From a virus (lineage: Duplodnaviria; Heunggongvirae; Uroviricota; Caudoviricetes), in IMG/VR virus record IMGVR_UViG_2703718816_000008: a stretch of 4,812 bases of DNA; one strand, given 5' to 3'. The position numbers were made by a program. Positions 3,001-4,812 of the stretch are shown piece after piece. Numbering within the stretch: the first letter of the stretch is position 1; the number at the start of each line of letters is the position of its first letter.

Positions 3001-4812
3001 GGAATAAGCCACAATGGACGCCGGGTTAAACTGACTCTGCCACTGTTCAGGTGAAATAATCTTTTCCGTTGCCAGTGCTGTATTACCGTTTACATCAACA
3101 GATACCAGACCGTTTGTCCCGGCATAGAGTACGAATCCCTCCATCGCCACCATACTTCTTCGGCTCAGGCATGCCTGCATGGAAGGAATTCTGGAGCCAG
3201 AAATTGTGGACGGTGATACCCCACTGAACAGATAAGGCTCCCCCTTTGTCGCCACCACCAGTGACGTTCCCAGCGGACAGATAGCCACAATATCTTCTGC
3301 CGTCGTGTGACGATTCACTTCCGGCCATGCATACGGCAGATACGCTTCCGAAAACATCACTTCATTACCGGCAAACCCGGCGGCAATACCATTAGCCATC
3401 AGGCAAAGGCCTGTCATATTCTCTGGCGGCGGCAGGTAATCCCATGTCGCCAGAGAAGGTCCAAGGTTTTTCCCCGGTATTTTGTCCGTGTAACTGAGCA
3501 CGGATGCATCCAGTTCAGCCACAAGTAAAAAATCCGCCTCCCCTCCACCTGATGCAGAGCGATAAATCCGGCGGCGTTTAATACTGGCATTCTGCAATGG
3601 CACCGGAGACAGCGTCAGCTGTACCGCAGTCCCCGGAGTACGGAGTGTTACCTCCAGAGACGCCGGACCTGGCGGACCTTCTTCACCATAATCTGAGACA
3701 AAGGTTTCCGTATAAAACCGGGTTTCGTCATCATTCGGGTTATCGTCAGAAACATCACCGCCCTGCTGAACAGTACAGACAGGTGCTGTCGTCGGCGCGG
3801 GGATCCCCAGACGATACGATGATGCCGGATGATTCCCGTCCCCTTTTGTGGCAATGGTTGCATCCGTCACTTTAGGAAAACGCCCGTCAGTGTAGTAAAT
3901 ACGCCCGTGGGGGTCCTGAGCGATCGGACTGCGGATCACATCCACCACATCCGTCCATGCAAACCAGAAATCGTCACGGTAATGAAAAATTGTTTTTGGC
4001 TTAATTGTGAATGTTTTCTCAACCTCTGACATCTCGTGTTCAGGCGTGATCACGCCATAGCGAAAATGACAGTTTTCTGCCAGTACAGCAGAATTATCAG
4101 GAAGCATAGATGCAATAACGCCTGGCATCATCCCGCGCATAGTGGTTATATCGATATAAGGCATGGTTATCTGGTATCCGAAAATTTGAATGGCAGACGA
4201 GGTGGAATAATTAATCCCGGCACAATTTCACGACGTCAACCCGTACAGGAGTCGCTCTTACCGGCCCCCTCCCGGTGAAAACGCATATTGCTCTGTTTAC
4301 AAAAACCGCCCGTCCACATGCAGGGAATTCGCAATGTCCGGCGAAAATGGCATCGTAAATGAAGCATGTAATCGCGCACGGGAAAAATATGGATTTCCAA
4401 AAATCTGAATATTCTCCGCCGTGAAAAAATGCGAACAACATCACTTCACTAATCAGCCTGATATGGCATACTTAGCACGCTAACTATGATAACAAACTAA
4501 TACCCTAAAACTCATGGTTCCGGGACTGGTCGTGGTCCCGTTTTTTTTATTCAGCCAGCAGGCCATCCGACAACATAACTGCGGATCGCCTTCAGCTCTG
4601 TCAGCGCCTCAACCTCTGCTTTCATCTGCAACTGCCGTGTATTAATCTCCACTCCCTTCGCAAACATCGCCTGCTCTGTCGCATCTGCCAGCGCAATGAT
4701 GTCAGCCGCCGTTACCGGCACCACATTATTATCCCCGTCCGTCCAGGCAAAACCTTCCGGAAGACGGTTATTCTCTGCCATCAGGCGTGTCGTGCTTATC
4801 CTGGACAACGTC

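Follow-up and report, generated by a model that had tools for sequence, protein, structure and literature searches.

A DUF4376 gene in the fiber accessory slot of a 933W/Sp5-type Stx prophage, part of a cassette of probable lambdoid origin

Introduction

That phages evolve in part by exchanging cassettes that join a fiber tip to its chaperone is well known. In short-tailed Stx-converting phages, the tail module has been dissected by systematic deletions in Sp5, where the fiber gene ORF67 together with ORF70 and ORF71 was found essential for tail formation; ORF71 has J-like DUF1983/COG4733 domains, and ORF68 and ORF69 are outside the nine essential open reading frames (ORFs) (PMC5155283). Proteins with the Pfam domain DUF4376 are known as fiber partners from other hosts. 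When encoded directly after a fiber gene, such a protein is needed for active fibers in the Alteromonas myovirus V22 (PMC7289586) and for the fiber of Campylobacter CJIE1 (PMC7882524). The DUF4376 chaperones are described as trimeric "caps" that resemble intramolecular chaperones. V22 gp27 and A5 gp9 dock on the fiber knob by three N-terminal beta-strands and have a helical body with a central beta-hairpin, and one fiber with its cognate chaperone is common to a schitovirus and a myovirus (PMC10579305). Here we describe a DUF4376 gene in a 4,812-nucleotide (nt) stretch of DNA from a tailed virus (Caudoviricetes; IMG/VR record IMGVR_UViG_2703718816_000008), referred to below as the window. A preliminary description had taken the part of this gene that lies inside the window for the 3' end of a gene like lambda tfa, displaced upstream of a J-like gene and lom.

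The fragment at the right edge of the window belongs to DUF4376

The fragment (4551-4812, minus strand) is an ORF of 86 codons that is open at the right edge of the window and has its stop codon at 4551-4553. The ORF reported in the preliminary description is therefore real. Its proposed start, a TTG at 4808, is internal: in a relative from Escherichia coli OkiPb01701, which is 100% identical to the window over 4197-4812, the full gene (24526-25134) reaches 347 nt past the window edge. This gene encodes 202 amino acids (aa), and the window holds codons 117-202 and the stop. Both the fragment and the full-length protein matched Pfam DUF4376 (PF14301), with E values of 8.9e-11 (42.6 bits) and 6.3e-17 (62.4 bits), respectively, at a cut-off of 25. 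Nearly all of the 116 homologs of the 202-aa protein are annotated as DUF4376. This count was obtained with the full-length query; the 86-aa fragment gave mostly truncated database entries.

Neither the fragment nor the full 202-aa protein matched Caudo_TAP (PF02413) at an E value of 0.1 or below, whereas the positive controls, lambda Tfa and Mu U, scored 2.8e-43 and 6.7e-37. BLASTP against lambda Tfa and Mu U gave no match, and comparison of a 38-member alignment with the same two proteins by hhalign yielded probabilities of 2.5% and 1.3%, respectively. At the level of sequence, the fragment is the C terminus of a 202-aa DUF4376 protein and not a member of the Tfa/Caudo_TAP family, and the supposed relationship to Tfa proteins is absent. 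The label "Tfa-like" is valid by position and probable function, but not by family. Like lambda Tfa and Mu U, the protein is encoded by a small gene directly 3' of a fiber gene, is exchanged together with the fiber tip, and has a presumed role in fiber assembly. It differs from them in belonging to another family, with no Pfam, BLASTP, or profile similarity to either.

The best protein matches in the phage database were orf-191 of the P-Eib prophages of ECOR-9 and its homologs in phiP27, Rac-SA53, and GER2, which are 33-45% identical over the full length. Some of these homologs are annotated as tail fiber or tail fiber assembly proteins; orf-191 and some of the phiP27 entries carry no functional name, and we know of none in this group that has been characterized by experiment. 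They are more distant alleles and, in contrast to the gene described here, are found in long-tailed phages.

A separate observation concerns phiSTEC1589-Stx1c, which encodes a DUF4376 protein of 223 aa (3952-4623). The N-terminal part of this protein gave a sub-threshold match to Caudo_TAP (E value, 0.0017; 18.9 bits; cut-off, 22.1), which hints at the existence of hybrid proteins with a Tfa-type N-terminal part and a DUF4376 C-terminal part.

The window is part of a 933W/Sp5-type late module

The window was compared with 50,697 phage records and with 5,426 complete E. coli genomes. Over positions 26-4196, at least 110 records of Stx-converting phages match it at 97-99.7% identity, among them Shigella phage 75/02 Stx, P13374, phi191, TL-2011c, and the 933W/PA2 group, and comparable prophage matches occur in 336 of the E. 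coli genomes. The best match over 26-4812 was OkiPb01701, at 99.8% identity. Its complete prophage lies beside the rut operon and contains Q, tRNAs, stx2a, lysis genes, terminase, portal, an N4-gp56-type capsid gene, and the adaptor. The adaptor is followed by a tail fiber of 670 aa with collagen repeats, the 202-aa DUF4376 gene, and the five conserved genes of the window from the 541-aa ORF to lom, which is intact in this prophage; a hok-like gene and a gene for a 2,793-aa protein follow downstream. The single fiber gene stands immediately upstream of the DUF4376 gene, and neither a tape measure gene nor lambda tail genes are present in the flanks, which hold the capsid, portal, and adaptor genes on one side and the gene for the 2,793-aa protein on the other. 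We conclude that the window is the tail region, within the late module, of a short-tailed 933W/Sp5-type Stx prophage (Sepvirinae), and not a lambda-type tail.

The order fiber gene, accessory gene, 541-aa gene, 422-aa gene, lom is the same in OkiPb01701, P13374, 933W, and phiSTEC1589-Stx1c. Since these relatives of the 933W type all show it, a fiber accessory gene that precedes the J-like gene and lom is nothing unusual; the location is canonical for the group and has been known since 933W. The late (virion) operon has a fixed order, in which the adaptor is followed by a collagen-repeat tail fiber homologous to lambdoid Stf and a small variable accessory gene, and these in turn by the conserved 541-aa and 422-aa (J-like) tail assembly genes, two small genes, and lom.

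These results bear on several points of the preliminary description. Lambda does have the order J, lom, stf, tfa, and the set of 541-aa, J-like, and lom genes downstream of the fragment on the same strand holds up in Pfam and PHROG matches. The premise of a tfa gene displaced within a lambda-type tail falls, because the window corresponds to the standard 933W/Sp5 late module (PMC5155283). A tailocin, a satellite, or a second fiber locus had been suggested as well. The relative with 99.8% identity is instead a full prophage that combines terminase, portal, capsid, and lysis genes, Q, and stx2a with one fiber gene, and these readings were rejected. The further suggestion of a mosaic junction between two tail fiber modules was right in substance, as shown in the next section. 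Overall, the observation is partly confirmed, and the interpretation given to it is partly supported.

The slot after the fiber gene is a variable accessory position. The Sepvirinae Stx phages 933W, Sp5 (VT2-Sakai), P13374, and phi24B share with the window the gene order, a region from the 541-aa gene through lom that is 96-99.7% identical, and a fiber N terminus and collagen shaft that are 95-98% identical, but they differ in the fiber tip and the accessory gene. In 933W, a Phage_fiber_C tip is followed by two small ORFs, L0122 and L0123. The P13374 fiber has a Peptidase_S74 intramolecular-chaperone tip, after which a Gp38_N protein is encoded, and phiSTEC1589-Stx1c carries another DUF4376 protein, the one of 223 aa, in the same slot. 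In the allele described here, an uncharacterized tip is followed by the DUF4376 gene and a remnant of a ykgJ gene. As a side observation, L0122 of 933W (3285-3674) overlaps the end of the fiber gene L0121 and has a Phage_fiber_C domain of its own (E value, 1.2e-35); it may be a duplicated or alternative fiber tip.

The DUF4376 gene lies in a cassette shared with lambdoid prophages

The window is homologous to the Stx-podophage backbone no further than 4196, and matches to lambdoid prophages begin at 4251-4269. Between them, at 4197-4250, lies a real mosaic junction. Past this junction, the window is 95.6% identical to a lambdoid prophage near yecD in the O104:H4 strain 2011C-3493. A second lambdoid prophage, at potB in the O157:H16 strain Res13-Lact-PEA12-26, has 92.8% DNA identity over a shared 1,444 bp. 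The stretch shared with the O157:H16 prophage comprises the 3' part of ykgJ, a hairpin, the whole DUF4376 gene, the fiber tip, and the start of the collagen repeats. The DUF4376 proteins of the podophage and of this prophage are 97.5% identical in amino acids, and the non-collagen fiber tips, each of ~75 aa, are ~97% identical in a comparison of the C-terminal sequences by eye.

In three lambdoid prophages, J, lom, stf, and the DUF4376 gene are followed, at the end of the prophage, by a ykgJ-family gene in convergent orientation. The order is that of lambda, and the DUF4376 gene stands where lambda has tfa. The likeness of the window to the lambdoid stf end thus amounts to 92.8-95.6% DNA identity from the 3' part of ykgJ to the DUF4376 gene and, in the O157:H16 prophage, reaches the fiber tip. 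The surroundings differ. In the lambdoid prophages, ykgJ is intact and the cassette stands last in a tail operon of the siphovirus type with lambda's gene order, whereas in the window the cassette is grafted onto a podovirus fiber shaft upstream of the J-like gene.

The exact downstream junction was found in 13 of the 5,426 complete E. coli genomes, eight of which represent one bovine clone, and was absent from all 50,697 phage records. The junction filler (4197-4250), between the Stx-podophage backbone and the lambdoid cassette, is unlike either parent examined, and base composition shows no sharp shift at the junction. We also noticed that about 54-72 bp of filler sequence (4197-4267) recur at 99% identity in four further genomes, in which the sequence then diverges; related variants of the junction therefore exist. 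At the other end of the cassette, the OkiPb01701 fiber is 95% identical to the P13374 fiber up to residue ~579 and diverges after it, so that the second crossover falls within the collagen-like repeats.

The ykgJ remnant (4251-4408, plus strand) consists of the last ~51 codons (59-109) of a YkgJ-family gene, with a frameshift near 4268. The intact gene of the O157:H16 prophage encodes 109 aa with a CxxCxxCC domain (Pfam). In a tblastn search with this 109-aa YkgJ, residues 64-109 matched the window at 97.8% identity (E value, 7e-28), and residues 59-64 were matched in another frame; the RefSeq annotation of OkiPb01701 lists the remnant as a pseudogene. No ykgJ remnant was found in the other fiber alleles (933W, P13374, and phiSTEC1589), and it is thus specific to this allele. 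Because ykgJ is intact in the lambdoid prophages but truncated and frameshifted here, the cassette probably moved from a lambdoid prophage to the podophage. We infer that a single cassette of ~1.4 kb, comprising the fiber tip, the DUF4376 gene with the terminator downstream of it, and the piece of ykgJ, would have entered the podophage, donated by the right end of a lambda-like prophage. The upstream crossover would have occurred within the collagen-like repeats of the fiber gene, and the downstream one would have been an illegitimate join at window positions 4197-4250. Taken as a whole, the reading that a DUF4376 fiber accessory gene occupies its normal place in a Stx podophage and belongs to a cassette of lambdoid origin has, in our estimate, a probability of about 0.8.

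The DUF4376 protein is a candidate fiber chaperone or cap

We consider it reasonably probable that the DUF4376 protein is a fiber chaperone or cap, which is its most likely function given the precedents of DUF4376 fiber chaperones and a confident AlphaFold model with the same layout. The model of the 202-aa protein has a predicted local distance difference test (pLDDT) score of 93.3 and contains strands at residues 8-16, 22-32, and 38-45, helices at 76-99, 115-129, and 151-185, and a hairpin at 102-113. This layout agrees with the architecture of the V22 and A5 chaperones, the comparison being with the text description in PMC10579305 and not by superposition. Sequence searches of the PDB with the 202-aa protein and with a 38-sequence profile returned nothing meaningful, and Foldseek of the model against the PDB gave no match with an E value below 0.1.

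With V22 gp27, A5 gp9, and the CJIE1 gene that lies downstream of its H-fiber, the protein has in common the Pfam domain, the position after a fiber gene, and the predicted architecture. The DUF4376 chaperones of V22, A5, and CJIE1 and the E. coli cassette are also alike in being shared between morphologically different phages. The hosts are different, and the likeness of the E. coli protein rests on domain, position, and model. The spacing between the fiber gene and the DUF4376 gene is 17 bp in both the OkiPb01701 and the O157:H16 prophages. In the mechanism that we propose, the N-terminal beta-strands of the DUF4376 protein would bind the C-terminal knob of the fiber, the helical DUF4376 body would trimerize, and the fiber tip would be helped to fold. 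The protein, as an intermolecular chaperone or cap, might leave after folding or stay in place as a cap.

Alternative explanations

The main rival to a chaperone or cap is a permanent distal adhesin, which would sit on the fiber tip and itself bind the receptor, like Gp38 of T2-type phages. Such a role would fit with the P13374-type Stx phages, in which the protein in the same slot has a domain for adhesin attachment (Gp38_N), with the frequent annotation of DUF4376 homologs as "tail fiber protein," and with the pattern of variation in the protein, whose DUF4376 half is conserved among alleles and whose N-terminal half differs. In addition, TfaMu-type chaperones can stay on the fiber (PMC7882524). 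However, the 202-aa protein has no Gp38-like domains, the characterized DUF4376 proteins act as chaperones or caps and not as adhesins, and the fiber has a non-collagen C-terminal knob of its own (~75 aa) that moves together with the DUF4376 gene. We regard an adhesin as unlikely. Some findings nevertheless weigh against the chaperone function and the account as a whole. No experiment on an E. coli DUF4376 protein was present in the literature found, a homologous chaperone is dispensable in Alteromonas phage A5 (PMC10579305), and the small Sp5 genes in the same slot, which are of a different family, are non-essential (PMC5155283). The context of the window was deduced from relatives with 99.8% identity to it over 26-4812, all of them without the IS2 insertion found at the left end of the window, and the fold of the terminator-like hairpin of the cassette (-13.2 kcal/mol; z = -0.8) is no more stable than that expected from shuffled sequence.

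The cassette could also be decaying cargo in a defective copy of the prophage, in which case the DUF4376 gene would have no current function here. In the window, lom is broken by IS2, the neighboring ykgJ is a truncated and frameshifted remnant, and the allele is rare, as its junction counts show. Yet the 86 visible DUF4376 codons are intact and identical to those of full-length genes in relatives, the podophage and lambdoid versions of the protein are 97.5% identical, and the tail genes in the window are all intact; lom and ykgJ, moreover, are accessory and not virion genes. Decay is, in our judgment, improbable. More improbable by far is the reading that makes the fragment a genuine Tfa of the lambda type (Caudo_TAP) and takes the window for a rearranged lambda-like locus, a second fiber locus, a tailocin, or a satellite. 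The DUF4376 gene does come directly after a Stf-like fiber gene, which in lambdoid prophages is lambda's tfa position, and the N-terminal part of the 223-aa relative in phiSTEC1589-Stx1c does have its sub-threshold Caudo_TAP match. Nonetheless, the 202-aa protein lacks a Caudo_TAP match under conditions in which both controls score strongly, and hhalign gave it a probability of less than 3%. The prophage most closely related to the window is a complete Stx2a prophage of the podovirus type, has one fiber gene, and lacks tape measure and lambda tail genes; the gene order is common to more than 100 phages.

Implications

The arrangement itself was already known: it is the long-known 933W-type layout and offers little for basic biology. 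The minority allele (13 of 5,426 complete E. coli genomes) appears to give Stx2a phages a fiber tip of lambdoid origin, and it provides a clean enterobacterial example of a DUF4376 fiber partner, a candidate chaperone. BamA is the receptor reported for short-tailed Stx phages. The allele may alter receptor use and host range compared with common Stx phages, which bears on the spread of stx genes. A bolder proposal, which we put forward only tentatively and lean against, is that the lambdoid side-tail-fiber tip and its DUF4376 partner retarget receptor binding when placed on the shaft of a Stx2a podophage, and that enterobacterial DUF4376 proteins are a distinct class of trimeric fiber-cap chaperones. 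If this were true, the receptor of this Stx2a podophage would be one other than BamA, and the DUF4376 class, with a prefoldin-like helical hairpin, would be unrelated to Caudo_TAP and mobile between siphovirus- and podovirus-type temperate phages.

Other features of the window

An ORF scan placed all long ORFs of the window on the minus strand. Between the convergent DUF4376 gene and ykgJ remnant lies a hairpin that resembles an intrinsic terminator (4521-4548, plus strand; stem-loop, 4521-4540). Its 8-bp stem includes five G-C pairs and has T8 after it on the plus strand; on the minus strand, A8 precedes the stem and there is no T tract. The position of T8 on the plus strand orients the hairpin for the convergent ykgJ remnant, so that it is not, as had been proposed, a terminator on the same strand as the tfa-like gene. 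It is the only terminator-like site in 4100-4812, where 0.7 would be expected by chance, and the lambdoid prophages have this element too. In lambdoid biology, Q-antiterminated late transcription reads through terminators, and late transcription under Q should read through this hairpin. A search of the whole window against Rfam gave no match at an E value of 1 or below. The minus strand between the hairpin and the 541-aa ORF comprises ~385 bp without a credible gene. Two ORFs of 77 and 54 aa in the gap at 4211-4444 were rejected as genes, since both overlap the ykgJ remnant; the 77-aa ORF had no Pfam or PHROG match.

The 541-aa tail assembly gene (2539-4164, minus strand; phrog_511; E value, 2.9e-276) encodes a protein with 96% amino-acid identity to L0124 of 933W and, judging by synteny, would be the equivalent of Sp5 ORF70. 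The protein covers only positions 319-859 of the 862-position phrog_511 profile, which implies that some members of the family have an N-terminal extension of ~320 aa. The label of this profile, "internal virion protein," is at odds with Sp5 genetics, in which the gene acts in tail formation. In P13374, the 541-aa homolog is annotated as two ORFs, ORF67 and ORF68, of 496 and 54 aa (14514-16204), which suggests a frameshift or a sequencing error in that record.

The 422-aa gene (1274-2542, minus strand), of the 933W L0125/Sp5 ORF71 type, overlaps the 541-aa ORF by 4 bases, and its product resembles the C terminus of J. It matched Pfam Phage_Tail_Tip (E value, 6.5e-11), phrog_496 (9e-187), and the PHROG profile "central tail fiber J" (2.6e-24). 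BLASTP with lambda J itself gave a weak match over residues 853-984 (E value, 3e-4; ~780-984 at the widest). With a match to J this weak and partial, a lambda-type tail locus was rejected. Two conserved small ORFs follow on the minus strand: one of 92 aa (981-1259; phrog_557; E value, 8.7e-36; L0126 in 933W), annotated as "outer membrane protein," and one of 205 aa (358-975; phrog_425; E value, 4e-81) of the 933W L0127 type, annotated as "membrane associated protein." In phiSTEC1589-Stx1c, the names "endopeptidase Rz" and "virulence determinant Bor" given to the ORFs at the positions of the 205-aa ORF and lom (8350-9792) seem to be mistaken annotations.

The gene at the left end of the window (28-267, minus strand; ORF, 267-25) belongs to the Ail/Lom family (phrog_108 Lom; E value, 2.6e-9) and retains its first 80 codons. 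It is cut at codon 80 by IS2, of which the terminal 27 bp, from the end on the side of the transposase start, occupy positions 1-27. Positions 1-45 had 21,751 matches in 4,791 E. coli genomes, and the one match inspected adjoins an annotated IS2 (IS3 family) transposase. The insertion in lom was present in none of the database relatives, whose matches to the window all start at base 26. The intact lom of OkiPb01701 encodes 244 aa with 36% identity to lambda Lom.
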